Shown here one piece after another: positions 5,289 through 54,868 of a DNA stretch of 64,000 nt. The stretch comes from Candidatus Latescibacterota bacterium (GTDB lineage: Bacteria; Latescibacterota; UBA2968), in the NCBI GenBank assembly GCA_965204375.1, contig OZ241986.1, positions 1 to 64,000 on the forward strand, given 5' to 3'. Under the pieces are notes generated by a model. That model was not told the DNA's origin, did not search any database, and saw nothing but the letters and a program-made list of their open reading frames with translations. The stretch's first letter is position 1, and every line of letters begins with the position of its first letter. The position numbers and the translations under genes are program-made.

Positions 5289-5504
5289 ATGGATTTAAGT
5301 GTCCTTGAAAGACGTGTTTGTGAAATAGAAAAAAATGTTCAAGAACTCTTACACGAAATTCGTTTGTTGAAACAAAATGGACAAACGACAGACGCCGATA
5401 TTGCGAGACAGCGCGAAACTGCCCGACGTATGCGCGAAGCACGCGACAAAATGCCACCTCTTGGTATGTCCATAAAAGAAATGGTAGAGGAAGGACGTGA
5501 GTAA
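5289..5504 (+). CDS. VapB-like antitoxin, copy C2
   Basis: GAGGTG SD, ATG 5289; overlaps the PIN gene start; paralog of 2561-2800. Confidence 0.75.
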   Translation: MDLSVLERRVCEIEKNVQELLHEIRLLKQNGQTTDADIARQRETARRMREARDKMPPLGMSIKEMVEEGRE

Positions 5505-5946
5505 ACGCATTGTGATTGACTCCAGCGTTGCTCTCAAATGGCGACTGCGCGATGAAGAAGCTTTGGAACAGGCCGATGTCTTATTAGAGCATTTCTTATC
5601 CCAAGAGCTTGTGTTAATTGTGCCGACGCTCTTTGATTATGAGATTGCCAATGTGCTGAAAGTTGCGATTGTTCGAAAGCGTCTTGCCAAGGAAGAAGCA
5701 GACAAAATTATAGAAGAATTTCAGAACTACGCGTTAAGGCGATATGAGTTTGTTCCATTACAAAAGCAGGCGTTTCAACTGGCTTATGATCACCAACGCT
5801 CTGTTTATGACAGTGCATATCTCGCATTGGCCCAGACAATGGATGTGTGGTTTTATACAGGTGATTTGAAGCTCTTTCGAGGTGTTCAGCAAAAACTGAA
5901 TTTTGTAAAATGGATTGGAGACTATGACCTTGATCTGATCCCCTGA
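5497..5946 (+). CDS. vapC: PIN-domain toxin (VapC family)
   Basis: IVIDSSVALKW, YEIANVL, SVYDSAYLALA and YTGD acidic PIN motifs. Confidence 0.9.
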   Translation: MSKRIVIDSSVALKWRLRDEEALEQADVLLEHFLSQELVLIVPTLFDYEIANVLKVAIVRKRLAKEEADKIIEEFQNYALRRYEFVPLQKQAFQLAYDHQRSVYDSAYLALAQTMDVWFYTGDLKLFRGVQQKLNFVKWIGDYDLDLIP

Positions 5947-7593: not shown

Positions 7594-8556
7594 TTAAAAA
7601 AGTGAGAGTTGGACGGGGTCTTGTTCTGTTGTGGGTTGTCTGGCAGGTCTCTCATTGGGATAGCACACGGCTTTGAAGGGGCAGGTGGTACACAGGTGGA
7701 TATTTGTCGTCATTGGGAAGGTGTCTTGCGAAGCGGTGTTTTGCTCGGGATCGTCGAGGAGGGCACGCATTTTCTGGACACTTTCGGTGACAAAGATACG
7801 GGTCTGGTCGAGGTCGTCGGGAGAGAGGTGCAGGGTGCGTTCGGTGTTGGTTTGCAGGTAGATGTCCTGGAGGTGCAGGTCGGATAATGCGACGCCCCAC
7901 TGCGAGGTGGCGTACAGGGCGTACACAGCGAGTTGGTGGCGGTCGGCCTGGCGTTCCCGCCCGGTTTTCCAGTCGAATATATAGACCGATTTGTTGCGGC
8001 GAATTGCGATGTCGAGCACGACCCATATTTTGGTATTGGCAAGGGTAAAATCTGTGAGGTCTTCAATGGTGAGATAGTTTTCGGGGCGGGCAGATTGCAG
8101 GGTGGCGTAGGCATCGGAGGCGAAAAAAGCGTTGAGACTTGTCGAGATGTGATTGGCCGACTTGTTCTGATCGGTTTCTGTAAAGGGTTCGCTGTAATAG
8201 TGTTCAAACAAATTGGTGTATTGAGAGGCTGAATAGCGCCAGAGGTGGTCTTTGGATTCTTGCAGGTGTTGACCGAATAATTTTTGCGCGTAGGTCTCGG
8301 TAGCTGACGGGTGAATAGGGCGTCCCAATTTCAGTGCATTGAGTACGTTGCTAATGGCGTCGTGTACCACGGTACCGACGAGTTGTGGTACTGTGGTTAT
8401 TTTTTTGAGGCGATAGAGTAATTGGGTCTGCGCGTCTGCGTTTTTGTCCCAGCCACCCCAGCTACCGTAGTAGTTGAAGTAGTATTGTCGCCTGCACGAT
8501 TCAAACATGCGATGGCGCGAAGGCGACCAGGAGAATTCGTTTTGGAGTTTGGGCAT
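7594..8556 (-). CDS. PD-(D/E)XK nuclease, RecB/AddB/Cas4-like, with Fe-S cysteines
   Basis: WSPSR...CRRQYY, GTVVH, LD...IFDWKTG, QLAVY, CTTCPFKAVC; directly downstream of aroA. Confidence 0.85.
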   Translation of the reverse strand: MPKLQNEFSWSPSRHRMFESCRRQYYFNYYGSWGGWDKNADAQTQLLYRLKKITTVPQLVGTVVHDAISNVLNALKLGRPIHPSATETYAQKLFGQHLQESKDHLWRYSASQYTNLFEHYYSEPFTETDQNKSANHISTSLNAFFASDAYATLQSARPENYLTIEDLTDFTLANTKIWVVLDIAIRRNKSVYIFDWKTGRERQADRHQLAVYALYATSQWGVALSDLHLQDIYLQTNTERTLHLSPDDLDQTRIFVTESVQKMRALLDDPEQNTASQDTFPMTTNIHLCTTCPFKAVCYPNERPARQPTTEQDPVQLSLF

Positions 8557-21572: not shown

Positions 21573-21998
21573 TCATTTAAATATTTCCAACCCGCGATAA
21601 TCGCGCCCAATGATGACGGTGACTTCCTCAATGCGGAAGGGATCGGGTGTTTTTTGCTGGATCACATTGGGCGTACCGAGCACATTGGCGACTTGTTTGG
21701 CATATTCTATTTTGCCCAGGCGATCTATGACAATGGTCTCGGGAAAGTTGAAATTTTCAGCATTGCCCAGGGTCATGACATCTATGCCAAAATCGCGCAG
21801 TTTTTGCCCGACCTCGGTTGCAATGCCGCCTGTGCCACAGCCATTGAGAATTTCAACGCGAATATTGTGAGAGACCTGGGGGGCTTCAGGCACGACATCG
21901 GGCACCGTTTCCGGTTCCCAAAAGGCTTTTGTCGCAAAGACCAGTCCGGCGATGAGCAGTCCGCCGAGAATCCATAACCAGCGTTTCATGTTGGCCAA
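21573..21998 (-). CDS. LytR C-terminal domain protein
   Basis: N-terminal TM; VEILNGCGTGGIA; VTVIIGRDY. Confidence 0.85.
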   Translation of the reverse strand: MANMKRWLWILGGLLIAGLVFATKAFWEPETVPDVVPEAPQVSHNIRVEILNGCGTGGIATEVGQKLRDFGIDVMTLGNAENFNFPETIVIDRLGKIEYAKQVANVLGTPNVIQQKTPDPFRIEEVTVIIGRDYRGLEIFK

Positions 21999-22084
21999 TA
22001 TAACAATAAAAAAAACAATAAAAAGAAAAAAAAAAGAGGCGCCTGCCTTACGCGCTGGCGCCCCTATCTGTTCAGGTCAGTCTT

Positions 22085-22552
22085 TTAATAGCGTCTGTAC
22101 CTGTCGTTGTAATAATAGGGATAGCCATAGCCATTGAAGGTGCTGAATCCAAATTCGATGCGAATATTGGGTTTGGGCTGATACAAAAGACTGACATTGG
22201 GAACGACGACTTGAACACCACCCGATGAGGTCGAACCGTAACGCGTATTGCCCGACATTTGATTGACCAGGCCAACTTGCGCTCTGACGATGAGCGGTTT
22301 GGATATCTGATAGGTGATGTCGTTGAGATAATACTGGTTCAGACCACCGCCGTATCCCGAACTGTAACTGATTCCGATGGTGTGGTTAAATTTGAGCTTT
22401 TTCAGGTCTAACAAACCGCTGGTGGTTTTTAACCCGTTCACGAGGTTCTCACCTGCGAGCGGGATTTTGTTTTGCGGCTGAATGCCAATGTCTGCCCGTG
22501 CCTGCGTCGCAATCAAGGCTACAACTGCAAGTGTACAAATCCATTTGTGCAT
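22085..22552 (-). CDS. Hypothetical exported protein
   Basis: Signal peptide (ATQARA); beta-strand-rich mature part. Confidence 0.7.
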   Translation of the reverse strand: MHKWICTLAVVALIATQARADIGIQPQNKIPLAGENLVNGLKTTSGLLDLKKLKFNHTIGISYSSGYGGGLNQYYLNDITYQISKPLIVRAQVGLVNQMSGNTRYGSTSSGGVQVVVPNVSLLYQPKPNIRIEFGFSTFNGYGYPYYYNDRYRRY

Positions 22553-22725
22553 GTTTAAAACCCCCTTTCCATTATAAACAGGATACGGAAACTGAGATGA
22601 GATGTCAAGTGTTCTGTTTTCTTAGACACCTGAGCCTATCTGTGTGTTCCAAAATAGAAATTGCGCTTGAAAGAGAGGGGTGGGATGGCTATACTTATGT
22701 GTGTTCTACGCGAAAGGAGAATGTC

Positions 22726-23001
22726 ATGGCAGAACAAATATCTACAACAGACGCGCCCTTGTCGTGTCCGACATTAGAAAAATTGTCGGAGAAAGAGCAG
22801 GAGATGTTGTTCGATGCGTTTGAGAAGGCTATCGAACTGGCAAAAAAAGCAGGTTTCTCAGAGGCTGAAATTTTTCAATTTTTTGAAGATGTGATCGATG
22901 TTCGCGCGTCTGAACAGGTCTTGGATAAAATGGAGAGAAAAGGGGAGAAACCAATGCCTTTGGAGGAATTCGAAAAAGAATTGGACATACAGAGTGAATA
23001 G
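22726..23001 (+). CDS. Antitoxin (RelB-type partner)
   Basis: AAGGAG SD, ATG 22726; acidic protein ending PMPLEEFEKELDI; overlaps the relE start. Confidence 0.75.
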   Translation: MAEQISTTDAPLSCPTLEKLSEKEQEMLFDAFEKAIELAKKAGFSEAEIFQFFEDVIDVRASEQVLDKMERKGEKPMPLEEFEKELDIQSE

Positions 23002-23263
23002 GGCCTATACGGTTGAAATTACATCTGTTGCTCGTCGTCAGATAAGGCTTTTACCCAGATCCATGCGGGATAGAATCATCTCCCGACTGTACGCTTTAGC
23101 TGATAATCCACGCCCACCGGGTGTTGTCAAGGTGAAAGGCCGCCGCAGGAGCGATGAATATCGAATACGAGTGGGGAATTATCGCGTGATATACCAGATT
23201 AACGATGATATGCTGGTTGTGCTGATTGTCCGTGTCGCAAATAGACGAGAAGCATATAGATAG
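22994..23263 (+). CDS. relE: RelE/ParE family toxin
   Basis: YTVEI..ARRQI, NPRPPG, YRIRVGNYRVIY, VANRREAYR; GTG start 22994. Confidence 0.92.
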   Translation: MNRAYTVEITSVARRQIRLLPRSMRDRIISRLYALADNPRPPGVVKVKGRRRSDEYRIRVGNYRVIYQINDDMLVVLIVRVANRREAYR

Positions 23264-23315
23264 ATAAATAGATGAATATCCTACTCATCTTCGCACCGCG
23301 CATCAACTGGTTCGC

Positions 23316-26300
23316 CTACAGGGGGGGCAATAAAGAGAGCGGAGAGGGGTTTTTCCTTTCTTCGCAGAAATACATCGCCTTGAACCGTTCCATTTGTTTG
23401 ATTTTATCGATCAGAACTCGTTCGTGTTGCGAACTCGCCACATTCCGGACAAGGAACTTAGCATCCACATCAGTCAATCTTAGTACCAAGTAATTCGCAA
23501 TAGCTGAAAAAACAGAGACGTTGAAGTCCTTTGCTTCCTGTGAGGCAAGCACCAGCGAAATACCGTATTTTCGACATTCCTTGGCCATGGTGGGAATAAG
23601 TTTGAGGCCCGCGGCGCGGTGCGCCTCGTCGAAGATCAACGCATGGGTGACGCGGTCATGGATGCCTCGTCGAAACATGTCCTTGTAAAGGCTATAAAAC
23701 ACCAATGAGGCAAAAGCCCGTTGAAGGTTATCATTCTGTGTTGTGTGAATACGGATGACTATCGGTTGTTCACTTTCCCATAAACTGCTACGCGACTCAC
23801 GGAGATTAAAGAATCCGTAGTCTTCAAGTTCTTCCAGACGAGCAAGTAATGTGGCCAATCCACGGTCCAGTTTCTCGTCACGCAGAATCTCAACGAAACG
23901 GCTAAACGCCGGTTCTTGTAAATCTGTGGTACCTGCGTTGGCATTTCCCCATCCTGCTTCGGTAAAGCTGTCTTTGATTGCCCTGCGGATACGCTCGGTC
24001 TGGATGTCGCCGAGTTCTGGGTAAATCGCCGCGAAGATGTCCCGTATTGCGCCTGCCACGTCGAGATGCGCCATACGGGATTCCCGATTTACTACCTCTA
24101 GCGGGTTGAAACCCAGACCATCAAAATCGATGAACCGAACTGAATCAACCGACTGCTCGAGTTTCTCATCAATGTCCTGATGGTAGGAGAAGATGATCGG
24201 GCAGATGTCTGCTGCGACCATCTGCTGGCACAGATTCAGAAGGCAGGTGGTCTTGCCCATCCCCGGCAATCCCGCGATCAGAAGATGGGGGTTGCCCTTT
24301 ACAGTTAGCGGCCAGTCAACTTTTGCATTTGTAAAGGAATCTGTTCCCAAACAGATTGAGGGAATAGTGTCAACGGAGGCTTCCACCTGCTCAACCGATA
24401 TTTGTTGAGAGTCTATGTCCCCTTTGACTTTCTTATTGTCCCGTTTCGACGCTGAGCGAATCTCCGGTTCGTGGTTGTTTATAGCCAAATGAAAGTCCGA
24501 ATCGGGCAAAAGGCTGGGACCGAATAGGAATACCTTTGTATTCCAATTGTCGGGAGAAATTTCCAACGGGCTCGCCCCAGCATACTCGGGACAAAATACC
24601 CAACCTCGATCTCCGCTTTCGTCTATATCCAGCTTGTAGTCCCCACCTTTCTCGATCATGCGATTAATCTCTGTTACAAGTTCTCCATGTCGCGTCTCAG
24701 ACAAATGATGCCTGCGTGCCTTATCCACATAAAAGCGTAGTACACGAGCGAGCTTGGCGCGACGCACTGCTCTAAACGCAGAGCACACTTCATGCGAATA
24801 CCAATCGTTCCAGCGTTTGCGCATCCCCTCAATCTGATCTCGAACGCGACTCAGGATATCTGGCGATTTCGTAGCGCGTAGATCTCGACGGTGCTTGATC
24901 TCGATAAAACGGAATATCAATCCTTTTCTCCGCGCCGTAGTCACATAAACCAGATCAGGTCTCACATTTTTCTCATCGTCATTCTTGTCCTTGAACGGCG
25001 GCAAGAGGTCCCGAACGTCATCTACAGGAACGATGAAACCGTGATCCAGCGGTACCCAGCATGGATCTTCCTCTCGCGCCTGTCTGCAATTTGCCTGCGA
25101 AAAAGCGAGTGCGATCAACTCCGAAATCGGTGGTTTATCTCCGGTGAGACGAATGGCGAGCCGTCCGCTGAGAGCCTTCAAATGCTCAAGGAGAAACTCA
25201 GCGTTTCGACGGCTGCGACTCAGCCCCATCTGATTTAAGGCACCATCGAGCAGTCTGCGCACCTCATCTAGATTGCTGGTGGAGGTGATGAGTTGTAAGC
25301 AGCCCAGGTCTTCCCGTTCAGGAACGCAATCGATCACGTAAGCATCGTAGATTTCTCCATTATCCCGAGGAGAATCAAAATATTCGATGCCAGCGTTCCG
25401 GTCCAGTGTAATGACCCAGTCACAAAGCCGATGGAGATTCTTGAGGTTATCCGCCTTTTCCGGCGAGATTGCTGTGTGCAGCACTGGTAGTTTGTTATTT
25501 TCAGTACCGACATGGCGTGCTACAGTACCCTGTATGGCTTGTTGCAAACGCGCCATACGTTCGGTATGTATGCGCTCTGACGGATGCTTTTCTCCATCTT
25601 TTGCCGGTGGGATCGTACTATACCACATAGGCGTGGGCTTTGTGGTGAAGTCGCGCTTGTAGAAGGAGAGCAGGCCAAACGCGTGGAACGGTCCATCATT
25701 CGATGGTTCCTGTCCGTCCGACACAACATACGACTCGAACGTGTCGAACGCGACGGCAACATGGGCGGCGGTCTCAGGCTCAGTTCGATCCTTGCGTGCC
25801 CAGCGCAATTTGGGCATGTTTACCCCGCCAGCCATACTCAAGGATTCGAGCATCCACCGATCTTCAATTGACACCACACCCGCACCACTGCGCCGCCGTT
25901 CCCGTGCCTCGACGATGAATCTACCTGCAATTCCTCGTTGCTCCTCGGACGGATACATCTCCAGAGAAAAAATGGGTGGTTCTCGAGATTCTTCCTCTGA
26001 ATCAACAGATAGTCCATCCTCGTCATCAGCTATGTGTAGATGGTCGTGGACATGGCCCAATGATCTGGCGATGGTCAGACCATCGCCAGATCGAAGCGCG
26101 TGGACGTGAAGCAGCCGAGATGTGTTGTGGCAATCCAGATACTTGATGATCTCGTCACCTACTATCTTTGCGCTTTGTCCCCCCACCGTTGGAGCGTTTT
26201 CCATTGACGCGCCTTCCCCCAGCGCACTCGCGAGAATTGCTACAGCAGCTTTGGGTTCTTTGTCAGTGTCGGGGACCATACCGACCGCATGAAAGCCGAG

Positions 26301-28262
26301 GGTGTCTGCAAAAACAAACGATCCGCCAGCCGGATTCGGTAGAAAAGTAGGAAACATGGCACCGTCCAAGCACTGGAGTTCGTCCCTTATGGCTTTCGCT
26401 TTTTGACCCTGCTCAAAGGCCGCGTGGAGAACGAGGTTGTCATAAGCCGCATGCCACGCAACGCGCAATGGATGCATTGGCAGGACGATCAAACCGATCA
26501 TTCGTCCTGCAAGGGACTGCACTTCCACGGTGTTGCAAAGTGCCAAGGATGGATCCCCACTTTCCAGTAAGAGAGTCCAGGCGCGGATATACTCTTTAAC
26601 CAAATTAAACGCTTTTGCCTTATCGTCATAAATGTGGCCTACCACACTGTTGTTCTTGCAGACATAGTCAGCCCATCTTCGGCTCGCTGTGGTAACTCGA
26701 TTCCATGCATCCCCATTGCCCTCACAGCGAATGAAATCCACTTCTCCCGCTTGGGTTCCAGATGCACGTACTTTAACGCGCCAATGTCCTGGTATTCCGG
26801 CTCTACCCATCCACTGCTTTTCTACTTCGCGGATCAGCGGTGGACAAGACACGCGAAAACTCAACCGTTTTGAAGCTGTCGTGCGCAACAGCACCGAGTT
26901 GCCTTTCTCATCGAAGCTAAAACCCGCTGGATTATCGACGATAGCCGAGACGTTTTCTCTGTCATTGAGTTCGACCATCCCCTCACTGAAGGTGCGAACC
27001 TTTTTGCCAGCACCCCCCGCGTTCTTTTCAGGTGGCTCGCCAAAGCGAATGAAGAATTCCTCGCTCTCTTGAGGTTCAACTACATCGTTACCGACTACGG
27101 AAATCACCACCTTAGCGGAGACAAGAGATTCCTCATTCAACAATGAGAAGTCGTCATTGCTGAATCGACATTTTTCCTCTCTTTTTCCTGAATGACCTGC
27201 TTCGTGTACGGCAAGTTCTTCATCCATGCCTGTCAGGATGGCAACATGGTACTCAACAGCATTTTTTTCTAAGTTGCTGGGCCTTGCCTTCCATCTGATT
27301 TCCAAATTCGAATAGTCAGCTGAAGTCGCGGGTTCTGGATTCAAAATTAACTCTGGCGGTTCGTCATCAGGTCGTTCTGTCAATCCCGACCACTTGGCAA
27401 TCGTGCCATTTCGATTGCGCCAAGACACAAGTTCAATTGATTCGATGTCACTCGCATTCTCTATCTGCAATGCACCTACCCACAGGTGTTTCTTATCTGC
27501 CAGTTTTTCCAATGCAGGAAGAAGAGATTGGGTTTCCGCAGTGTGCAGGAAGCCTTCAAGGTCGCGGCGCTGTTCATCCGTCAACTTAGCTAGCCGTAGC
27601 GACTCAATGCGTGCTGGAATAGTCAGACCAAAGGCTGCCGTCCCCAACAAGTGATCCACGAATCGGCGTGCAAAGTCCAACTCTTCCTTCGAAACTGAGT
27701 CATCGATTTTTTTTACTGGCCACAGACCAAGTAGGTGAAAATACGCGCCAGGATGTCGTTTGTGCGCTGCAATCCGGCACAAAAAATCGAATACTGTCCA
27801 GGGTGAAACACTGTACTGCCTACCGAATCCTTCGGCTTTTTTTATTGCGTCTTCGGCATACTGGCGATCAGCGCGGGACAATTGGCGCGTCACTTCAGCA
27901 GCAGCCAGTCGTCGAGCTTCCTTGAACAGTCCTGTCTCATCTACTTCCCGCGACGCGCTGTAAATGCCGTCCATGCCAGCACCGGCACGATCAGTGTCCA
28001 CCAGTAGCAAAGTTGCTTTGCCTTTGGTCTCGCGTATCTCGACAGCATGATCCGCTGTAATGGTTCGCGTTTTGGCATTATCCGAATCCGCGACCCGTCG
28101 AATCTGCCAATCCTGTAGGCTGAAGTTATCGTCCACAGCGAGCTTCATCACCACATCTGACGTCAAACAACGGACGAAGGCCATAGCACCAGATTCAGCT
28201 TGACCCAGTACATTTGAAAACGCATTCCCGAGTATTTTCCCATGTAAGTTGGTCCATTCCAT
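23316..28262 (-). CDS. mad8: MADS Mad8 / DndH(DptH)-like large protein: PD-(D/E)XK-like motif plus C-terminal HerA/VirB4-like ATPase
   Basis: 1648 aa; Walker A GLPGMGKT, Walker B LIFDEAH, RKYGISLVLASQ; RPDL...FIEIK motif; third gene of the kinase-unknown-ATPase triad. Confidence 0.75.
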   Translation of the reverse strand: MEWTNLHGKILGNAFSNVLGQAESGAMAFVRCLTSDVVMKLAVDDNFSLQDWQIRRVADSDNAKTRTITADHAVEIRETKGKATLLLVDTDRAGAGMDGIYSASREVDETGLFKEARRLAAAEVTRQLSRADRQYAEDAIKKAEGFGRQYSVSPWTVFDFLCRIAAHKRHPGAYFHLLGLWPVKKIDDSVSKEELDFARRFVDHLLGTAAFGLTIPARIESLRLAKLTDEQRRDLEGFLHTAETQSLLPALEKLADKKHLWVGALQIENASDIESIELVSWRNRNGTIAKWSGLTERPDDEPPELILNPEPATSADYSNLEIRWKARPSNLEKNAVEYHVAILTGMDEELAVHEAGHSGKREEKCRFSNDDFSLLNEESLVSAKVVISVVGNDVVEPQESEEFFIRFGEPPEKNAGGAGKKVRTFSEGMVELNDRENVSAIVDNPAGFSFDEKGNSVLLRTTASKRLSFRVSCPPLIREVEKQWMGRAGIPGHWRVKVRASGTQAGEVDFIRCEGNGDAWNRVTTASRRWADYVCKNNSVVGHIYDDKAKAFNLVKEYIRAWTLLLESGDPSLALCNTVEVQSLAGRMIGLIVLPMHPLRVAWHAAYDNLVLHAAFEQGQKAKAIRDELQCLDGAMFPTFLPNPAGGSFVFADTLGFHAVGMVPDTDKEPKAAVAILASALGEGASMENAPTVGGQSAKIVGDEIIKYLDCHNTSRLLHVHALRSGDGLTIARSLGHVHDHLHIADDEDGLSVDSEEESREPPIFSLEMYPSEEQRGIAGRFIVEARERRRSGAGVVSIEDRWMLESLSMAGGVNMPKLRWARKDRTEPETAAHVAVAFDTFESYVVSDGQEPSNDGPFHAFGLLSFYKRDFTTKPTPMWYSTIPPAKDGEKHPSERIHTERMARLQQAIQGTVARHVGTENNKLPVLHTAISPEKADNLKNLHRLCDWVITLDRNAGIEYFDSPRDNGEIYDAYVIDCVPEREDLGCLQLITSTSNLDEVRRLLDGALNQMGLSRSRRNAEFLLEHLKALSGRLAIRLTGDKPPISELIALAFSQANCRQAREEDPCWVPLDHGFIVPVDDVRDLLPPFKDKNDDEKNVRPDLVYVTTARRKGLIFRFIEIKHRRDLRATKSPDILSRVRDQIEGMRKRWNDWYSHEVCSAFRAVRRAKLARVLRFYVDKARRHHLSETRHGELVTEINRMIEKGGDYKLDIDESGDRGWVFCPEYAGASPLEISPDNWNTKVFLFGPSLLPDSDFHLAINNHEPEIRSASKRDNKKVKGDIDSQQISVEQVEASVDTIPSICLGTDSFTNAKVDWPLTVKGNPHLLIAGLPGMGKTTCLLNLCQQMVAADICPIIFSYHQDIDEKLEQSVDSVRFIDFDGLGFNPLEVVNRESRMAHLDVAGAIRDIFAAIYPELGDIQTERIRRAIKDSFTEAGWGNANAGTTDLQEPAFSRFVEILRDEKLDRGLATLLARLEELEDYGFFNLRESRSSLWESEQPIVIRIHTTQNDNLQRAFASLVFYSLYKDMFRRGIHDRVTHALIFDEAHRAAGLKLIPTMAKECRKYGISLVLASQEAKDFNVSVFSAIANYLVLRLTDVDAKFLVRNVASSQHERVLIDKIKQMERFKAMYFCEERKNPSPLSLLPPL

Positions 28263-28263
28263 A

Positions 28264-30072
28264 TCAATTCTCCACTTCAGTATCGAAGCGAGGCTTTAGC
28301 CGCTTCATTGCTTCTGCATCATTGACACCCACCAAAAGTCCCAGATCGCGCAGGCGTCGCTCCAAAATCGTGCGATTTCTTTGCAGTAATTCGTTGGAGA
28401 TCGTCATCCCTGATGGAGCGGTATCAACATAGAAGCCGTATCGTTCGCGCAGAATTTCGATAAATTCCTTGAATGAGAGGGTCCGGATGCCCAGTTTATT
28501 GCCACTTCGCAACAAATGGAGATGGACAAGATAGTCCAGTACCGAATCGGTGAATACCAAAGAACGCACATCGCGTTTGCGGCGCGTTGTACTTCCACCA
28601 AGACCACGCGTCGTCACTCTTTTCGCGGCCAGACCGTTCGGACGCCCGGTGAGCAAGATTGAGTCAATCATTCCCATAAACTTGGTACGAGAGCTTGCCC
28701 CTATTAGAACCATTAAACCATCGGCAAATCGCCAGACCGGATTGGGCTGGTTATCTGCATTGCCAAGAATCTCCGCTGCCTCGGCATAGGCGTCCGCTAC
28801 TTCTGTAGCCAATTTGTTAGCATCATCTTCAATCCTGAACAAAATTCGTTGCGCTTCTGAATGGCGATTGTGCAGCAAGTCCCCTAACAGATTTAGCCAC
28901 TCGGTAGAATAAGGTCGGGTAACAATACCCTGATTTTTGATTTTTTGATTGTCCTGTGCATGATAATCCAGCAGCCGCAGTGCCATTAGAATAGCGGGAA
29001 GGCGCTCCAAGCGTCGCATATGGTCATCCATTGACTGCTCAGCTATATCCCGAATACTGCGTTCGACTCCGTTAGAGCAGTCGATGAATAATGGAGCCGG
29101 TAGCTGTTTCCTTCGATCTGGGATGGCACCCGTATCCGACCACTGCAACAGCAACTCTATCGTGCTGGTAAGAATGGTCATCAGGCCAATGGCAATACAG
29201 GACTCCAGCATTTCCACCAGAGCGTATCGCGGCACCAAAGCAGAGTATGAGCGTACGAAGCGGCGAATGTCCTCGGAGAAGTTCTGCGCTGCTTGCTCGG
29301 CAATAGGGCGTTGATTAGAGATTGGGCCTGCTTCCCTACCACGTATCTTATCTGGTGCCCTTTCAAGTTGCTGAGCGAGTCGGACCATCAATAGTTGGTC
29401 TAATCCTACTGAGTCATTTTTCTCCTCAAACCGCTCCGATGCCAGGTCTCCCGAGAATTCTCCCTGGCGGATAACACCTTGGCTAAAGGCATTCAACAAA
29501 ACGTTATCTTCGTAGTTTTTCCCTATGGGGAACCATGTTTGTTTCTTATTTTCGCTCAGCCCGACAAACTCACCATTCTTTTGATCGGCCAGCAGGGCCA
29601 CGATCATTTCGGGAACGTAGCGGAGGTTCACTACTCTTTCTGGTAAATCAATCCAACTCGCCATATAATGGGCTGGTGCAACGCGCTGTATCTGCTGGTC
29701 CCGCCCCAAACCATGCTTGACATTTTCAAGACAGAAACAGAGTAATAAATCGCCGAGGATGGCTTTTTCGAGTTCGCTGTTAAAACCGTCTAACTTTTCT
29801 ATGTTGGAAAGCCTCTCTGCGATGCGCTCAATATTCACTGACCGTCTTATTTGGCTGGGCGATCCGCTTTTGTCTCCAAAGGTCTTTAGAAAATTTCCAA
29901 TACCTCTGCGTTGGCCGAAACGGAACATGTAGAAAACAGCGGGAAGAATGGAAGACAACTCAAAAGACTGAACAGAGACAGGTAACACTTTGTCGTAGTT
30001 CCCAGACCAGATTTCTCGGGTCATTTTGCGCCCCAGAATATCATCAACGAGTGCGCGGGCATTATCGGCCAT
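28264..30072 (-). CDS. mad7: MADS Mad7 / DndG(DptG)-like protein
   Basis: 602 aa between the Mad6- and Mad8-like genes; C-terminal F...LRERYG...LERRLRDLGLLVGVNDA resembles DndG-like ends. Confidence 0.65.
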   Translation of the reverse strand: MADNARALVDDILGRKMTREIWSGNYDKVLPVSVQSFELSSILPAVFYMFRFGQRRGIGNFLKTFGDKSGSPSQIRRSVNIERIAERLSNIEKLDGFNSELEKAILGDLLLCFCLENVKHGLGRDQQIQRVAPAHYMASWIDLPERVVNLRYVPEMIVALLADQKNGEFVGLSENKKQTWFPIGKNYEDNVLLNAFSQGVIRQGEFSGDLASERFEEKNDSVGLDQLLMVRLAQQLERAPDKIRGREAGPISNQRPIAEQAAQNFSEDIRRFVRSYSALVPRYALVEMLESCIAIGLMTILTSTIELLLQWSDTGAIPDRRKQLPAPLFIDCSNGVERSIRDIAEQSMDDHMRRLERLPAILMALRLLDYHAQDNQKIKNQGIVTRPYSTEWLNLLGDLLHNRHSEAQRILFRIEDDANKLATEVADAYAEAAEILGNADNQPNPVWRFADGLMVLIGASSRTKFMGMIDSILLTGRPNGLAAKRVTTRGLGGSTTRRKRDVRSLVFTDSVLDYLVHLHLLRSGNKLGIRTLSFKEFIEILRERYGFYVDTAPSGMTISNELLQRNRTILERRLRDLGLLVGVNDAEAMKRLKPRFDTEVEN

Positions 30073-30082
30073 TTTTTGTCTC

Positions 30083-33000
30083 CTACATCAGTTGTTGAAT
30101 AATCATTCGTTGCTGATCGTCTGTACCATCACTTTCAACGATCTCAGCAGAAATTTCATAGATTGCATCGTCCTGCATTGGATTATATGCCAATATCTTG
30201 CGATCATCCTCGCGAACCAATCGCTGCACAAAGATGGATAATTGGGCAAATGTATCATCCGTTGAGACGTCGCCCAACTGGTATCCATCATTCAGTTCCA
30301 GTAACAAATGAAACAAATCGGCACCAAGACGGAGACGCTCTTTCCGTCCATCCCGGTAGCGATAGATCAAAAAGACTTGGCGATGTAGTCGGTCGAGTCC
30401 CGGGGCTTCAGTGGGCAGATCAGCTTCGAGCCGAAAAGCGGTAATAGGCTTTTCTACCCAGAATGCTGTTTCAGTAGGGGTGCGAGGAGTGATACGTAGT
30501 GGGATGACTCTCGAGCGATCAAATGCTTTAGGAGGTAGGTTTTCCAGGCGCGCAATCCCCCCACATAGTTTTTGGCAAAGATCATCGAGATTGGCCTTGT
30601 CAATTGGAAGACTCTGGAACTTTGGATAATGCCGCGCTTGGGCTAAACCTAGGGCATTAGGATCGCCGGTAAGTTCAGCGACCTCGTCTTGGATCCATTC
30701 AAAATAAGCTCGCCGTCGCGCTGATTCCAATTCCATCTCTGCATAATGGGTAACATCAATGGTAGTATCAATAGATGGCGTACGCAGCAGTTTCCGATCG
30801 ATCTGTGGATGGGCTTCAAGAGCCGGGTCAAAACGTATCAGTTCTTGTAACACTTCGCCCTGCCGTCCCGGCGACTCTGGCGAAAAGGCGCGGTCCCAAT
30901 AGGGCAATAAGGTATCCTTACCGTCGTGATAGTCGCGGCAGAAGTGAACCCCAAACAGGATATATACCAGTGCGGCCCGCAGTTCGCGGATAGTGATGTG
31001 GGTTTCGCCGCGGAAGTGAACAGCTTGCAACATCTCGAACAATCGTTGCCGAGCGTGGGTACGGCGTTCCTTTAAATCCAAACCAGATAATCCATCAGGC
31101 CCAAATAACCGCAGAGCGCGGCGGACCTCACACCGGTCTTGGGCTGAACACGTTTCGCAGGGTGCCCAAATTTTGGATGCCTTCTCGCCACCGTAAAGGC
31201 TGTTTAGCAGGTCATCGAGAAAGTTGGTTTCGATATTTTTTGCATCAGCGGTTATACCTCCCACGAGAGAACGCTGGTTGAGATTGATGAATCGGATGTG
31301 CGATTCGAAGGCAGATCCCTCGCTGTTGAGCAGGCTATCAAGTGCCTGCGTTAAGGGCGTTTCCCCACCCTGAATGTGTACTACACCTTCGATCCATTCC
31401 AAGAGACGACCGTCATTGATCGCCAGAAGATGTACAATATCCTCATGGGGTGGGCCTTCTTGAAATGGTTCCAGAAATTCATCCAGTAACTCATCCGCTG
31501 ATCGTCCTTGCCAAGATGCCGAACCATCGAGATTCAGGCGCACCGTCAGGCCGTCATCCATTTGCTTTTCGAGAATGCGCTCTGAGGAAGTGTGGTCGCC
31601 AAACCCGAGACGACTGGCCAAGTGCTGAAGTAACGCGGTCTTACCATCCCCAGCGTTACCACACAGGACGACGAGGCGAACCTGCCGTTTCTGTATCTGA
31701 TCAAACAGCGATTGCTCTAAGTTAGTTTCTACATAGGTTTGCGAGGCAAAATCTGTATCGAGGCCGCGTGTTTCTCTATTACCCCAGCGCGAACCAGGAT
31801 AGGATTGTAGTAGGGATAGGAGCCAAGGAACTTCGTTTTCACTGCGAGCGTGAGGTTCCGATGGTGGTTTTGCGACATCGCTACCTTCCTTATCAATGAG
31901 TTCTTCTCCGTTTTCGGCGTCAATGGAGCTAGGCGGGAACAAAATGGCCTTCGCTTCAGTTGCGGACTTAAATCGTTGCTCGGGATCGGGATTTGTAGCT
32001 TGATCCAGAAATGCGGCGACGATTGGGTACTTGTCTCGCTCGACGCCTTCCCAATTCAATCCGCGGTCCTTGATTTGATTGCCATCGTATATAAATGGCT
32101 TCTTTTCAAAAAGCACATGGAAGAAACTCGCGGCCAACGCAAAGAAGTCATCTGAGGGTGTGGCTGGGCGGTCTTCAAGATGGGTATGCACGCTATACAT
32201 GACGGTCCCAGCAGCGGCTGGCGATCCTATCTTGGCTACACAGTCATAGTCGGTCAAAACGATCTCGCTATCGGCAACGATCAAGTTGCGCGGACTGACA
32301 TCGCCATGCACCAAACCATTGCGGTGTAGAACAGCCAACGCATCGCAAATCGTCCGTAACCAACGCAAAGATAGGGCCTCTTCCGACTCTTCATGGAAGT
32401 CTTCGGCAAGAATCGGGAGTAGCCCGGAAAGTTCGCTTAAAGGTTCGCCTTCTATCCATGCCATCAATGCAACGAATTCGTTGGCAAGCCACTCGTCCGC
32501 TGTCTCGAAGATGGTCGAAAGGGCTGTTGAATGATGGAGGTGCGAATGCGCCAAATTGTATGACTGAAGGACTCGCTTGCCCGTTTTCTTTTCTCGTGCA
32601 ACCTTGGCAACATAGGCCCCGAGGTCTCCACCAGTCGAGTCATCAATCTTCACCACCTTGAACGTAGTGCCGACACCACCTGACCCCAGACGCGACACAA
32701 TGCGGTAATCTCGACCTCGGAAGCTCACAATTTGGTCTTCAGTCCAGAATTGAGCCGGTGGCGCAATGACAGGCGGTGGTTCGCCCAATGGGATAGACAG
32801 AGAGTTGCGGAGTTCCTGCAAGGTGCTACGCTTCGCTGGATCATCTGCCAACCCCTCTGCAAGCACCTCCTTGGTTTTTCTACTTTCCTCATCATCCCGT
32901 TCCGAGAACAGAACGGACAGACTGGCACATAACGAATACACATCGGAGCGACGATCCGCTGCGCCGAGTCCTTGGGCACGCACCTCGGGAGCAATCGCAT

Positions 33001-34090
33001 TGTCTCCCTCATCTTCTGCACTATCAGAGATTGCCACCGTAATATCGTCGGGAATTCGGGCATGTTCGAAACCGGTTAGGATCGGGGTATTGTCATGTCT
33101 AACAAGAATCGTGCCCGGCGTGAGGTTTCGATGCAACAGGGGTTCTTCGCCTTCGTCTGTTTCATGCAGTTCCATCAATGCGTCAACTGTGTGCCGCGCA
33201 AAGGCTATGCGTGTCTTCGTATCCCAGGTGTCATCTTCCCTGCGTTGCTCAATACTGGGAGCTGCCGGATCTGCAACTGTGAAGAACCACATCTCGCCCG
33301 TGTACCCCGGTGCTTCTTGGAATGAGTCGTCAATACGCGGTGCCCAGGGGTGGAGTTGTAGTCGGTGCAGCGCGTCAAATTCCCGCCGCGCCCTCGACTC
33401 TGGATTCCGTTGGTCGATTGCCGACACATCGTATAGATGCAGGAGTACGCGATTGCGCCGTGTGAAATGTGTGCCTTTGTAGATTCGGTGAAAACGTTCA
33501 TCTGAAGGCGTCTGAAGTACCAGATTGACATAGCCAGCCATGCGTCTCAAGTCACCATGGGCCAACACATCGGTCTTTGGGTACAGAGCTTTTCCCAGTA
33601 CCTTGACCTGCGGCGGCGATAAGGACGCTGGCTCATCCAGTGCCACAGCACCTTGCCAGGTTTTTAATGTATGGAACGAAACGCCGCGGATTTTTTTCCC
33701 TTCAAGCGATTTGACTTTCAAAGCGTCCTGCGTGACGAGGAACACCCCATCAACTCGGTCGAGATTCGAGACCCTCCGACGTAATGTGGTACCGACCTTG
33801 CGTGCCTTGGCCATTACGCGCTCGGCTTCATGCTCTACAAGTTCGGTATTTTGTTTCACCCAAGTTGCGGTCCAGTGCTTGACCTCAATAACCCGGACCC
33901 CGGGCGGGCCGATGGCGATAATGTCGATTTCATCTGATTGGCGTTGATGGGTGGTGGAAAACGCGAGATTTGTCAACAGTAGCCATTCACCATCGCCCAA
34001 TTCGGAAATCAGGCCCGACTTAAGTCGCTCAAAGGCTTTCTGTTCGCTATCGTTGGCAAAAGGTCCACAGTTAATAGGAATTACTTTCAT
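30083..34090 (-). CDS. mad6: MADS Mad6-like protein: NERD nuclease + degenerate kinase + Ser/Thr kinase + DndF-like P-loop ATPase
   Basis: NERD EIDII...VIEVK; kinase 1 HRNLTPGT; kinase 2 LGSGGVG/VAK/HGDVSPRN/DYD; CGNAGDGKT and LAINDG; CxxC. Likely start ATG 34090 after GAAGGTG. Confidence 0.78.
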   Translation of the reverse strand: MKVIPINCGPFANDSEQKAFERLKSGLISELGDGEWLLLTNLAFSTTHQRQSDEIDIIAIGPPGVRVIEVKHWTATWVKQNTELVEHEAERVMAKARKVGTTLRRRVSNLDRVDGVFLVTQDALKVKSLEGKKIRGVSFHTLKTWQGAVALDEPASLSPPQVKVLGKALYPKTDVLAHGDLRRMAGYVNLVLQTPSDERFHRIYKGTHFTRRNRVLLHLYDVSAIDQRNPESRARREFDALHRLQLHPWAPRIDDSFQEAPGYTGEMWFFTVADPAAPSIEQRREDDTWDTKTRIAFARHTVDALMELHETDEGEEPLLHRNLTPGTILVRHDNTPILTGFEHARIPDDITVAISDSAEDEGDNAIAPEVRAQGLGAADRRSDVYSLCASLSVLFSERDDEESRKTKEVLAEGLADDPAKRSTLQELRNSLSIPLGEPPPVIAPPAQFWTEDQIVSFRGRDYRIVSRLGSGGVGTTFKVVKIDDSTGGDLGAYVAKVAREKKTGKRVLQSYNLAHSHLHHSTALSTIFETADEWLANEFVALMAWIEGEPLSELSGLLPILAEDFHEESEEALSLRWLRTICDALAVLHRNGLVHGDVSPRNLIVADSEIVLTDYDCVAKIGSPAAAGTVMYSVHTHLEDRPATPSDDFFALAASFFHVLFEKKPFIYDGNQIKDRGLNWEGVERDKYPIVAAFLDQATNPDPEQRFKSATEAKAILFPPSSIDAENGEELIDKEGSDVAKPPSEPHARSENEVPWLLSLLQSYPGSRWGNRETRGLDTDFASQTYVETNLEQSLFDQIQKRQVRLVVLCGNAGDGKTALLQHLASRLGFGDHTSSERILEKQMDDGLTVRLNLDGSASWQGRSADELLDEFLEPFQEGPPHEDIVHLLAINDGRLLEWIEGVVHIQGGETPLTQALDSLLNSEGSAFESHIRFINLNQRSLVGGITADAKNIETNFLDDLLNSLYGGEKASKIWAPCETCSAQDRCEVRRALRLFGPDGLSGLDLKERRTHARQRLFEMLQAVHFRGETHITIRELRAALVYILFGVHFCRDYHDGKDTLLPYWDRAFSPESPGRQGEVLQELIRFDPALEAHPQIDRKLLRTPSIDTTIDVTHYAEMELESARRRAYFEWIQDEVAELTGDPNALGLAQARHYPKFQSLPIDKANLDDLCQKLCGGIARLENLPPKAFDRSRVIPLRITPRTPTETAFWVEKPITAFRLEADLPTEAPGLDRLHRQVFLIYRYRDGRKERLRLGADLFHLLLELNDGYQLGDVSTDDTFAQLSIFVQRLVREDDRKILAYNPMQDDAIYEISAEIVESDGTDDQQRMIIQQLM

Positions 34091-34334
34091 AAACACCTTC
34101 TTCCCGTTTGTCATCACGCGCATTCAGAATACTCGAAGGTCGAACGCGGGTTCCCGTCGCTTTCTTGCGCTCGCGAACTCTTTGCAGCCACTCTTCAACT
34201 GAAGGTCGCGACGCGATTCGTTCCAACTCCTCGCGGAGAAATGCTTGCATAGACTGACGTTGGCGGGCAGCGCGGACAGCAAGTGCGTCGTGTACATCTT
34301 CTGGAACGTCTTCTATAGTGATTTGTACTGGCAT
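34071..34334 (-). CDS. FitA/VapB-like ribbon-helix-helix antitoxin, orphan; overlaps the mad6 start
   Basis: QITIEDVPEDVHDALAVRAARQRQSMQAFLR RHH signature; no PIN gene follows. Confidence 0.8.
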   Translation of the reverse strand: MPVQITIEDVPEDVHDALAVRAARQRQSMQAFLREELERIASRPSVEEWLQRVRERKKATGTRVRPSSILNARDDKREEGVYESNSY

Positions 34335-34352
34335 GACGGTTTAGTCCTATGG

Positions 34353-35477
34353 TTATTTCGCCTTGTCCATTAATTTTGCAAACTCATCGAAGAGATAATC
34401 GGCATCGTGGGGACCGGCAGAGGCTTCGGGGTGGTATTGGACGGAGAAGGCGGGCAGTTCGCGGTGGCGCAGGCCCTCCAGGGTGTTGTCGTTGAGGTTG
34501 ATGTGGGTGAGCGCTACGACTTCCCGGTTGAGGGTGTTGAGATCGACGCAGAAACCGTGGTTTTGCGCGGTGATTTCGACTTTGCCCGTGTTGGCGTGCT
34601 GCACGGGCTGGTTGGCACCCCGGTGGCCAAATTTGAGTTTGTACGTTTTTCCCCCCAGCGCCAGGCCGAGGAGCTGATGCCCCAGGCATATTCCAAAGGT
34701 GGGGCGTTCGCGGATCAATTTGTGGATGTTTTCGACCGCATACGTCACGGGTTCTGGATCGCCCGGGCCGTTGGATAAAAATATGCCGTCGGGATCGATT
34801 TCGAGGAGTTGCTCTGCGGGTGTATCGGCGGGAAAAACAGTTACATCGCAGCCGCGGTCAACGAGGTAGCGCAAGATGTTGTGTTTGATGCCAAAGTCGT
34901 AAGCCGCCACGCGGTATCTGACGTTTTGTCGCAGGTGTCTGGTCTGACCGGTTTTGAGATCGCAAAGGCCCTCGGCCCAGTGGTAGGGTTCTGTGCAGGT
35001 GACGTTTTGCACGAGGTCGCGTCCGATCAGGCCGGGGAAGTCTCGCGCTTTTTGAACGAGGCTGTCGGAATCGAGATCGATGGTTGACAGTACGCCTTTC
35101 ATTGCGCCTTGACGGCGGATATGCCGCACGAGGGCGCGGGTGTCAATGCCCTCAATGCCGGGTATGTTGTGTTCTTTTAGAAAGTCGCCGAGGGCAATGG
35201 TCGATCGCCAATTGCTGGGGTATGGACAGTATTCTTTGACGATAAAGCCAGAGACCTGGGGTTTTTGCGATTCAAAGTCAGATGGGTTGATGCCGTAGTT
35301 GCCAATGAGTGGATAGGTCATGGTGACGATCTGGCTGTTATAAGACGGATCTGTGAGGATTTCCTGATATCCCGTCATGCTGGTGTTGAAGACAACTTCT
35401 CCTTCGCATTCGACTTCTGCGCCAAAGGATTTGCCTTTGAAAATGGTGCCGTCTTCCAATGCGAGAATCGCTTCCAT
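34353..35477 (-). CDS. carA: Carbamoyl-phosphate synthase small subunit
   Basis: [34 protein letters not shown]. Confidence 0.98.
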
Positions 35478-53403: not shown

Positions 53404-54867
53404 ATGGAAGTTGCTGAATTAACACTTGAACATGCGACAACTCTGGAAGATGAGTGCAGAAATGAAAGCCACACACTGTACAGAGACCTGTTAGAAAAGA
53501 AATACAAGAGCCTGATCACCCACAATCCGAAATTGACAAGGACCCTTGTCAGCTTTCAGGCTAATAAAAACACACCGTATTATCGATGGTTTAAGTATAA
53601 AGAAGGCTTCTCAGCGCAGATGGTTCATTATCTTCTGAACGCATTGGCGGAGAAGCAGGGCGCACTATTGGATCCGTTCTCGGGAACAGGAGCGGCTCTA
53701 TTTGCATCGCAAGAATTGGGATGGGAAGCAACGGGTATTGAGCTTCTTCCTGTAGGATGTGCGATCACCGAAGCCAGACAAGCAGCCGAGCAGGTGGATA
53801 TTATACGGCTAAAAAAAGAAATTGAGGCCCTGGATAGCATTGATTTTTCGACTATCAAATCCGATAGCTCGATCCAACATATCGCGATTACGGAAGGTGC
53901 ATTTTCTCGAGATACGGAAGACCAACTGAACGGTTATTTAACCTATTGTGAAAATCAGATTAAAGATTCTCATATTAAGACGCTTCTTCGCTTTGCCGCT
54001 TTTTGTATTCTGGAAAGGATCAGTTATACCAGAAAGGACGGGCAATATCTCCGCTGGGATTATCGTGCGGGCAGAACGAGAGTGAAGTCGAAATTTAACA
54101 AGGGCAAAGTCTATCAGTTCAAAGAAGCACTTCAACTTCAGCTCAATTTGATGGTTGAGGATCTTCTCTATGAGGACATGGACCTTTTTAAAAAGGAAAA
54201 TTTGTCTAAAGAAGAACAGAACATTCGGTTGATTCAAGGGTCCTGTCTTGAAGAGTTGTGCAAATTCAGTGAGGAGAGTTTTAACTTTATTTTGACGTCT
54301 CCGCCCTATTGTAATCGCTATGATTACACGCGCACCTACGCGCTTGAACTGGTATTTCTCAATAAGAACGAAGAGGAAGTCAAGCACCTGCGACAACAAA
54401 TGCTATCCTGTACCGTTGAAAACAAAGAGAAAGTTGAATCGTTGGTGACTCAATATGCGGACCTGAAAAGAGAAGACTTTTTGCAGAAGGCTATTTTTGC
54501 TTTTGAGAACCATAATGCACTGCAAGAAGTCCTATATTGGCTGAATACATATAACGGGAAAGGTCAGTTGAATAACTCCAATATTCCTCGAATGATCGCA
54601 AATTACTTCCTCGAAATGGCTCTGGTCATATTTGAAATGAGCAGAGTACTGAAGCCGGGCGGAAAGGTCGCGATGGTGAACGACAATGTGCGGTATGCGG
54701 GAGAAGAGATTCCCGTTGATTTAATTCTTTCCGACTTTGCTGAAGCAGCGGGCTTATCCACCAGGAACATCTGGGTTCTGGGAACTGGCAAGGGGAATAG
54801 CAGCCAACAGATGGGCAAGTACGGCCGCGCAGAATTGCGGAAATGCGTGTATGTTTGGGAAAAATAG
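53404..54867 (+). CDS. Type II amino-DNA methyltransferase (M.AvaI/M.BsoBI-like, probably m4C)
   Basis: WFKYKEGFS, DPFSGTG (motif I), TSPPY (motif IV), KGNSSQQMG; convergent with a BsoBI-like REase. Confidence 0.88.
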   Translation: MEVAELTLEHATTLEDECRNESHTLYRDLLEKKYKSLITHNPKLTRTLVSFQANKNTPYYRWFKYKEGFSAQMVHYLLNALAEKQGALLDPFSGTGAALFASQELGWEATGIELLPVGCAITEARQAAEQVDIIRLKKEIEALDSIDFSTIKSDSSIQHIAITEGAFSRDTEDQLNGYLTYCENQIKDSHIKTLLRFAAFCILERISYTRKDGQYLRWDYRAGRTRVKSKFNKGKVYQFKEALQLQLNLMVEDLLYEDMDLFKKENLSKEEQNIRLIQGSCLEELCKFSEESFNFILTSPPYCNRYDYTRTYALELVFLNKNEEEVKHLRQQMLSCTVENKEKVESLVTQYADLKREDFLQKAIFAFENHNALQEVLYWLNTYNGKGQLNNSNIPRMIANYFLEMALVIFEMSRVLKPGGKVAMVNDNVRYAGEEIPVDLILSDFAEAAGLSTRNIWVLGTGKGNSSQQMGKYGRAELRKCVYVWEK

Positions 54868-54868
54868 T

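Follow-up and report, generated by a model that had tools for sequence, protein, structure and literature searches.

Three adjacent minus-strand genes of Candidatus Latescibacterota bacterium probably constitute a complete, functional and horizontally acquired restriction module of the DndFGH family, in which kinase domains are fused to the DndF-like component and which would act as a self-contained anti-invader system with no linked modification module. The genes, here called A, B and C, lie in the stretch of DNA analyzed in this work, positions 1–64,000 of contig OZ241986.1 of assembly GCA_965204375.1 (64,000 nucleotides, hereafter the window; the host genome is labelled G000). The triad is a further example of the kinase-fused stand-alone DndFGH predicted computationally by Rakesh, Aravind and Krishnan (NAR 2024, PMC10853773). 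A first, sequence-only reading of the window had ranked the locus as a candidate for a new system variant, which it is not: both stand-alone DndFGH and NERD-kinase DndF are described in that paper and restated in PMC12839542.

The functional state of the module is judged from its catalytic residues, which are kept in 45–54 of the 51–54 sequences compared, and from low ratios of nonsynonymous to synonymous substitution rates (dN/dS) in all three genes.

Gene organization and protein A

The three genes correspond to three long open reading frames (ORFs) in the ORF list of the window, encoding 1346, 602 and 1648 amino acids (aa); the coordinates of B and C are given in Table 1, and the ORF of A spans 30083–34123. 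No internal stop codon is present in the checked translations, and the genes are separated by 10 nucleotides (A–B) and by a single nucleotide (B–C). The homology of A to 78 related loci starts at about residue 12 of the ORF, and for this reason the start of A is probably Met12 at 34090, which gives a protein of 1335 aa. Three tightly spaced genes with intact frames and a first product of about 1335 aa had been proposed from the sequence, and both points hold. Residue numbers of A follow the 1346-aa ORF throughout.

Protein A carries a NERD domain (residues 25–92), a Pkinase domain (473–683) and a P-loop (near 800–866) according to Pfam. Conservation was counted over 54 sequences, with 53 loci giving full-length A in one piece. 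The NERD residues are almost invariant (Asp64 in 53 of 54, Glu80 and Lys82 in all). A pseudokinase, in which HRN and GFE replace HRD and DFG, occupies approximately residues 200–440 and precedes the active kinase; Asn333 is kept in 50 and Gly351 in 46 of the 54 sequences. The active kinase retains the lysine and the HGD, N and DYD elements, with Lys507, Asp608 and Asp625 each present in 51 sequences and Asn613 in 52.

The P-loop module of A contains a Walker A motif (GNAGDGKT), an INDG motif and a CxxC...C cluster. Walker A, with Lys828, as well as Asn903–Asp904 and Cys989/Cys992/Cys998 are each found in 54/54 sequences. The PADLOC SspF model matches residues 797–1059 (E = 2e-17), and the PglW model of the same collection gives a partial match to A (E = 1e-11). 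On its motifs, A is assigned a DndF core consisting of the Walker A, the ND motif and a putative zinc-type insert; the assignment of motifs to strands is inferred. The succession of NERD, two kinases and an ATPase in the sequence-only reading is thus matched in every element, the first of the two kinases being the pseudokinase.

Protein B

No Pfam family matches B in the copy of Pfam used, and PF26611 is attached to homologues of B in the protein database. The NCBIfam model MADS7 matches B over residues 68–596 (E = 2e-41), and the C-terminal 90 residues match SspG from PADLOC (E = 1.6e-4). A sequence profile of B finds no match in the PDB, DndG included.

The structure of B was modelled from 28 sequences with a pLDDT of 72.0 and a pTM of 0.78. 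The only convincing structural counterpart of the model is the DndG structure 7exx, matched by Foldseek with E = 2.1e-4 and a probability of 1.00. VIA-align places the same structure first, with Z = 17.1, a root-mean-square deviation of 6.9 and 398 of 440 residues aligned; the next chain has Z = 4.5, and SspB (Z = 3.8) and BrxA (Z = 3.6) stand further down the list. By its model, B has the triple winged-helix fold of DndG. It had previously been put down as a 602-aa unknown, a description that the MAD7-family match and the modelled fold replace.

Protein C

Conservation in C was counted over 51 sequences, with 50 loci giving a full-length protein. The PADLOC DndH model matches residues 1268–1636 (E = 5e-27); mad8 (E = 7.5e-17) and HerA also match, and SspH from the same collection does not. 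The top sequence match of C in the PDB is 7es4, the C-terminal domain of DptH (E = 1.9e-6). Walker A with Lys1337, the DE of Walker B at Asp1545/Glu1546 and the sensor-1 residue Gln1575 are each present in 51/51 sequences.

A D...ExK motif precedes the ATPase, with Asp1103 and Lys1123 each conserved in 45 of the 51 sequences and Glu1121 in 49. The pattern is matched by no model; we take it to be a nuclease motif. The C-terminal part of C has the predicted organization of DndH, in which a restriction endonuclease site is followed by a HerA/FtsK ATPase with a glutamine at sensor-1, and the earlier description of C as a nuclease-motif/HerA ATPase is borne out by these results.

Conservation of the triad

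With B as the query, 8,000 candidates were scored and 1,314 of these proteins reached E ≤ 0.001; the top 120 are 64–94% identical and about 600 aa long. Scanning one genome per species yielded 133 relatives, of which 80 were kept, giving 78 loci. These loci span Latescibacterota, Acidobacteriota, Binatia, Alpha- and Gammaproteobacteria, Caldilineaceae, Spirochaetia, Planctomycetota and other groups. The A–B–C order and strand are kept in 74 of the 78; one exception has no match to A (L050), and in the other three (L068, L069 and L075) the contig ends before C. A survey of homologue neighbourhoods had been suggested from the sequence alone, and it reveals a recurrent three-gene locus with no constant flanking gene: the 735 ORFs in the flanks of related loci fall into 623 clusters, none of which occurs in more than 6 of the 78 loci, and the larger clusters reflect synteny among close kin. 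Of the 75 loci with ORFs in their flanks, 11 include methyltransferase-like ORFs, as detected with hidden Markov models built from the host's own methyltransferases; these ORFs belong to differing families and lie in differing orientations. The absence of modification genes from the locus, as originally noted, therefore stands, with none linked here and none conserved across the related loci.

Comparison with three relatives gives dN/dS values of 0.10–0.16 for A, B and C. The triad is under purifying selection. Together with the intact catalytic motifs, these values make decay of the locus in this genome unlikely.

The triad is also carried by a conjugative plasmid of Rhizobium phaseoli R630, where it adjoins SIR2, IS66 and a type ISP restriction enzyme. 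The RefSeq names of its three products are 'NERD domain-containing protein kinase family protein', 'hypothetical protein' and 'ATP-binding protein'.

Two groups of loci deviate in their composition. Five Vicinamibacterales loci (L013, L015, L028, L036 and L072) have a conserved, co-oriented ORF of up to about 1,260 aa directly upstream of A, with no Pfam match, which may be a fourth gene of this sub-clade. In three Bryobacterales loci (L031, L037 and L040) the match to C ends near residue 1250, before the HerA/FtsK ATPase, and the upstream neighbours in the same orientation are a UvrA-like double ABC ATPase and a small cytochrome-c7-like ORF.

Insertion site and mobility

The triad is located on an accessory island of 11,678 bp (Table 1). 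As previously proposed, its direct flanks are carA and a toxin–antitoxin pair. carA and pyrC are the upstream neighbours of the triad; the pair, called relBE before, consists of a ParE/RelE-family toxin gene, convergent with C, and a candidate antitoxin ORF without a Pfam match. The span of 23316–34334 first assigned to the triad is correct except at its upper end, where 34071–34334 is a separate RHH antitoxin-like gene. Only 2 of the 78 loci have an RHH homologue upstream of A, and several triad-less relatives retain the RHH gene beside carA; the gene is for that reason assigned to the insertion site and not to the triad.

Table 1. Features of the triad locus and of its flanks, in window coordinates
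Feature	Position	Strand	Evidence and remarks
Accessory island, 11,678 bp	22676..34353	.	ParE/RelE pair, triad and RHH gene; from outer-membrane-like gene to carA stop codon
Candidate antitoxin ORF beside the ParE/RelE toxin	22726-23001	+	ParE/RelE pair spans 22726..23263
ParE/RelE-family toxin gene	22898-23263	+	PF05016, E = 2.3e-12; convergent with C
Gene C	23316..28262	-	DndH-like protein, 1648 aa
Predicted HerA/FtsK-type ATPase of C, residues ~1300-1640	23343..24365	-	Pfam FtsK_SpoIIIE, TrwB; PADLOC HerA, DndH, mad8
Putative PD-ExK nuclease motif of C, residues 1101-1126 (D1103, E1121, K1123)	24885..24962	-	Motif conservation
Gene B	28264..30072	-	DndG/MAD7-family protein, 602 aa
Gene A	30083..34090	-	DndF-like with N-terminal NERD-pseudokinase-kinase extension; 1335 aa from M12; ORF open from 34123
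DndF/SspF-type P-loop module of A, residues 797-1112	30788..31735	-	PADLOC SspF, NCBIfam DptF
Active Ser/Thr-type kinase domain of A, residues 473-730	31934..32707	-	PF00069, E = 9e-19
NERD (PD-(D/E)xK-type) nuclease domain of A, residues 25-92	33848..34051	-	PF08378, E = 1.6e-9
RHH antitoxin-like gene, 87 aa	34071..34334	-	FitA-like RHH, E = 4e-10; overlaps start of A
carA	34353-35477		TIGR01368, 526 bits

The island was tested by a DNA search of 30 relatives, 18 of which belong to the same genus. In at least 14 of these 18 genomes the two flanks lie 0–1.9 kb apart on one contig and the triad is absent from the exact site; the left flank of such empty sites ends at about window position 22651–22970 and the right flank begins at 34068–34351. 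The junction in relative G002 is 22675|34351. In two metagenome runs (X4 and X7), DNA contigs connect 22675 with 34354 and omit 11,678 bases.

Relative G018 holds the whole region, triad included, at the same site with 90% identity, and G017 has a triad at a different place, 76% identical. Remnants of the triad are found in G011 (L085, G011:C1:874000-882500) and G023 (G023:C1:3990435-3991421), in the form of short pieces that match C at its 3' end and A in its 5' part with 76–85% identity; the middle is gone. Some lineages have lost the triad by deletion.

The gap between an outer-membrane-like gene (22085–22552) and carA is empty in G002 and is occupied by the triad in the host and in G018. 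In G008 it holds a DUF433-like/PIN-like pair together with the same antitoxin ORF, and in G015 transposase fragments (L082–L084). Since other relatives carry different small cargo at this position, namely other toxin–antitoxin pairs and fragments of transposases, the site is a cargo hotspot in the genus. No integrase, transposase or conjugation genes are found on the island, and its borders contain neither a tRNA gene nor an Rfam family. We conclude that the triad is accessory and mobile and was probably acquired horizontally.

Comparison with known systems

According to PMC10853773, 1,798 taxa have DndFGH, and no more than 316 have the full set of eight dnd genes. DndFGH is described there as a stand-alone counter-invader system that is commonly decoupled from dndABCDE. 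In a subset of DndF proteins, a NERD domain and tandem inactive and active Ser/Thr/Tyr kinases stand before the P-loop kinase core; some of these kinase-fused examples have a winged helix–turn–helix ahead of the NERD domain. In the DndF core itself, the Walker A is canonical, Walker B carries an asparagine, an ND motif is present, and the large lid may contain a zinc insert. The N-terminus of DndH comprises an inactive SWI2/SNF2 lobe, a helix–turn–helix (HTH), two β-sandwiches, a target-recognition domain and an inactive DAM with a nested target-recognition domain (PMC10853773). The kinase-fused DndF was restated, and compared with PglW, in PMC12839542. In the literature that we surveyed, DndF and NERD appear together only in these two papers, both from the Krishnan group.

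The triad shares with the published kinase-fused stand-alone DndFGH the F–G–H gene order, the absence of dndABCDE, the NERD–inactive kinase–active kinase arrangement of DndF and the presence of DndG. All of the described sequence features of DndF are found in A, which is assigned on the basis of these features. For the N-terminal domains that DndH has in PMC10853773, the support in C is weak.

The canonical DptFGH/DndFGH of Salmonella and E. coli resembles the triad in the DndG fold of B (7exx) and in the ATPase of C, which is closest to DptH (7es4). Canonical DptF lacks the NERD–kinase extension (PMC10853773), and canonical DndFGH works with phosphorothioate modification (PMC11662687, PMC10470545); in contrast, the host has neither linked nor unlinked dndC or dndD, and A scores far below the DptF cut-off. 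SspFGH is similar in that SspF is the best match of the P-loop module of A and SspG matches the C-terminal part of B, but C has no SspH match.

MADS is an eight-gene operon dependent on N6-methyladenine (m6A), with a MAD3–MAD4 OLD-like module and a MAD7–MAD8 module (PMC13662399). In comparison with MADS (mad1–8) of Pseudomonas aeruginosa, the NERD–pseudokinase–kinase part of A corresponds to MAD6, B to MAD7 over nearly its full length and the ATPase of C to mad8. The flanks of the triad, in contrast, lack mad1–5, the scores are well under the cut-offs, A has an added DndF/SspF P-loop module, and C is a protein of 1648 aa with a nuclease motif of its own, whereas the mad8 model has 314 positions. 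PglW of type 2 BREX has the same N-terminal order of NERD, pseudokinase and kinase as A, but the triad has no PglZ or PglX partner, and the C-terminal half of A is DndF/SspF-like and not PglW-like.

Taken together, the F–G–H order, the DndG fold, the DndF core and the DndH C-terminus place the triad in the broad DndFGH family. It scores below the equivalog cut-offs of canonical DptFGH and MADS, and no partner genes of these systems or of BREX type 2 accompany it. The relation to mad6–8 and to DndFGH that the sequence-only reading had recognized is upheld, by the MADS6, MADS7, mad8, SspF and DndH matches as well as by 7exx and 7es4.

Evidence against the assignment and alternative explanations

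Several observations weigh against the interpretation of the triad as a functional DndFGH module that needs no modification partner, and they are gathered in this section. Among the family models, MADS6 matches residues 17–570 of A with 172 bits, below its cut-off of 460, and MADS7 matches B with 142.6 bits, below a cut-off of 410. DptF (TIGR03238) gives a weak match to residues 796–1112 of A (E = 7e-4), with 18.6 bits versus a cut-off of 50. The DptG and DptH equivalog models, which with DptF make up the set TIGR03236–8, find no match in the triad at E = 0.01. The profile of the C-terminal half of A returns nothing significant from the PDB, the top match being a shikimate kinase (E = 0.16).

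The same scores bear on the idea of a MADS system that was split or reduced, with the triad as its effector half and with mad1–5 located elsewhere or lost. MADS6 and MADS7 are the top NCBIfam matches of A and B, and PADLOC mad6, mad7 and mad8 all find a match. The scores are, however, far under the equivalog cut-offs, the DndF/SspF module adds approximately 570 residues to A, and C exceeds the mad8 model by the margin given above. The host genome, which is a single contig with a completeness of 95.98% by marker genes, has B as its single MAD7 match and no match to mad4, the mad1, mad2 and mad3 models being too unspecific to count here, and the three-gene unit stands alone in 74 of the 78 genomes. 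A MADS origin of this kind is extremely improbable.

The N-terminal 1,250 residues of C are matched by no DndH, SspH or other model, and a sequence profile of this region finds nothing in the PDB. We modelled residues 1–1200 (pLDDT 70.6, weaker beyond residue 680). With this 1200-residue model, Foldseek gives only weak matches, namely to the Brr2 helicase, its Sec63 unit and β-sandwiches. Structural alignment suggests a β-sandwich at residues 271–412 (top Z = 8.8), a Sec63-like helical and immunoglobulin unit at 195–408 (Z = 8.4) and a class-I methyltransferase-like fold at 672–985 (Z = 7–8.2), all of them middling scores. These modelled folds agree with the published layout of DndH and fall short of proof. 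No methyltransferase motif of the form [SDN]PP[FYW] is seen by eye in the sequence of C. The region is shared by many proteins, as a profile of its first 1,095 positions matches 947 cluster representatives (50% identity) at E ≤ 0.001, 368 of them at E ≤ 1e-30. Of eight distant full-length relatives of C, all fail the DptH model, and two show faint colinear DndH/SspH matches at approximately residues 900–1200.

As to activity, we found no experimental test of a kinase-fused DndFGH in the literature, most subscription journals being outside the search. Metagenome runs that hold at least one fifth of the sampled words of the locus are, where labelled, coral or sponge metagenomes. In an RNA library of a coral metagenome, contigs extend over most of the triad of a relative that is approximately 97% identical. 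Their depth is about as even as that of the DNA run from this sample; given this flat depth, and with contigs only, transcription cannot be read from them. A separate spike in RNA depth, of about 41,500 at position 22026 versus about 50 nearby, falls on a low-complexity stretch rich in A, with a GC hairpin after it (window ~21952–22040). We discarded it as an expression signal, as it is most likely an artefact of cross-matching poly-A-like words. A scan for promoters and terminators was at the level of chance, with 12 promoter-like sites versus 12.4 expected.

With no transcription demonstrated by the RNA-library contigs, with toxin–antitoxin genes on either side at a variable hotspot and with remnants in G011 and G023, the triad could be something other than an immune system: a silent passenger in decay, or a selfish or maintenance module with which, for example, a mobile element pumps DNA or enforces addiction. 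The dN/dS values and intact catalytic motifs argue against this, the island has no integrase, transposase or conjugation gene, and all homology leads to defence families. We consider a non-immune role very unlikely.

The last points concern modification genes. The host genome is unusually rich in DNA methyltransferases, with 15 PF02384, 21 PF01555 and 7 PF00145 matches, all unlinked to the triad, and any of these could supply a mark. In the 50 of the 78 triad-bearing genomes covered by the search, DndC was found above its cut-off in 17, unlinked, so that the family may use phosphorothioate in trans. In the corresponding alternative, an unlinked epigenetic mark would license the triad in trans as a restriction module and protect self, as in canonical Dnd, Ssp and MADS. 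In this host methylation would have to serve as the mark, since the genes for phosphorothioation are missing: no match to DndC is found at E = 0.001, and there is no true DndD, the best match being an N-terminal P-loop with 40.7 bits over model positions 1–58 (cut-off 245.85). Precedent comes from canonical DndFGH, which uses phosphorothioate (PMC11662687, PMC10470545), and from MADS, which uses m6A (PMC13662399).

One candidate for a trans-acting partner is an orphan protein of 770 aa (L087 8025–10337, G000:C1:5675024-5677336) in which a MerR-type HTH, an N6 adenine methyltransferase and a type I specificity domain are fused; it resembles a fused mad1–mad2–specificity protein and has unrelated neighbours. 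Its orthologues, 97% identical, occur in G002 and G015, both of which lack the triad, and the gene is broken in G001. The other 15 genomes of the genus, including the triad-bearing G017 and G018, contain no close copy (best 28–37% identity or no hit). We rejected the fusion as a partner, since its distribution does not follow the triad.

More generally, no methyltransferase family travels with the triad, and the host has no DndC. The frequency of DndC, 17/50 in triad-bearing genomes versus 5/30 in the relatives, appears to favour licensing in trans. By coordinates, however, only one of these 17 genomes has its DndC gene at a distance of approximately 25 kb or less from the triad. Within the genus, 4 of the 16 triad-less genomes and 1 of the 2 triad-bearing relatives have DndC (1 of 3 when the host is counted), which shows no clear association; as kin are not independent, none is drawn from these counts. 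Licensing by an unlinked mark is, on this evidence, unlikely.

A genome-wide look for mad, dnd, ssp and pgl genes had been recommended from the sequence alone, and it is conclusive in part. The host has no DndC, DndD, mad4, second MAD7 or BREX-type PglZ. Its sole PglZ (L081 13125–14699, G000:C1:6071124-6072698) adjoins a histidine kinase gene, dnaG and ispG, and was set aside as a BREX component because it is a PorX-like response-regulator fusion beside a histidine kinase and housekeeping genes. The PADLOC mad1, mad2 and mad3 models give 6, 81 and 186 matches in the host, the top mad2 matches coinciding in place with PF02384 matches, and are unusable as markers, since each also gives matches in 14/14 control genomes. 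The DUF4007 (SspB) search is silent in the host and in all control genomes and is thus uninformative.

Proposed mechanism

In the reading that we prefer, a self-contained kinase-fused DndFGH module, A, B and C would form one complex, as suggested by their domain anatomy and by the biochemistry of the family, in which the DndFGH complex has nickase and translocase activity (PMC11662687). B, with its DndG fold, and the long N-terminal region of C are predicted to bind DNA; in this region of C, a β-sandwich would be accompanied by a methyltransferase-like module that is inactive. The HerA/FtsK ATPase of C would translocate DNA, and its putative PD-ExK site would nick or cut it. In A, the P-loop module may bind nucleotide and act as a sensor or switch, and the NERD nuclease and the active Ser/Thr kinase may serve as co-effectors, as back-up effectors or as a gate.

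Provided that the system is active, we place at about even the chance that host DNA is spared by conditional activation, without any mark. A broader proposal is put forward tentatively, and we regard it as somewhat doubtful: members of this widespread clade would restrict DNA without any modification of the host's own, with the kinase and the DndF module gating the DndH motor-nuclease upon infection and self spared by conditional activation, and mad6–8 of MADS would be a reduced offshoot recruited to methylation.

Other features of the window

Additional defence-related genes are present in the window. At its start, a Cas6b gene with both Cas6b domains and a WYL/WCX/HTH regulator (1024–1683 and 3063–4064) suggest a type I-B CRISPR-Cas locus. 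A PIN gene (5497–5946) and a PD-(D/E)xK nuclease gene (7594–8556) are also found. In the region 53404–55843, a BsoBI-like restriction endonuclease is split into two ORFs (55277–55843 and 54869–55249) and adjoins a 487-aa methyltransferase-like gene with a weak N6_N4_Mtase match; the region looks like a broken type II restriction-modification pair.

Implications

Standard annotation misses this system: scores fall below the NCBIfam cut-offs, and the RefSeq names are generic. The number of B relatives among the candidates scored and the occurrence of the triad in 78 species genomes from many phyla indicate a system that is common yet under-annotated. The exact island borders, the empty-site alleles and a genome without dnd genes make this locus a good test bed for stand-alone DndFGH, and hence for a question already raised in print, namely how DNA is restricted by a DndFGH that has no modification partner, and what part the fused kinase plays.

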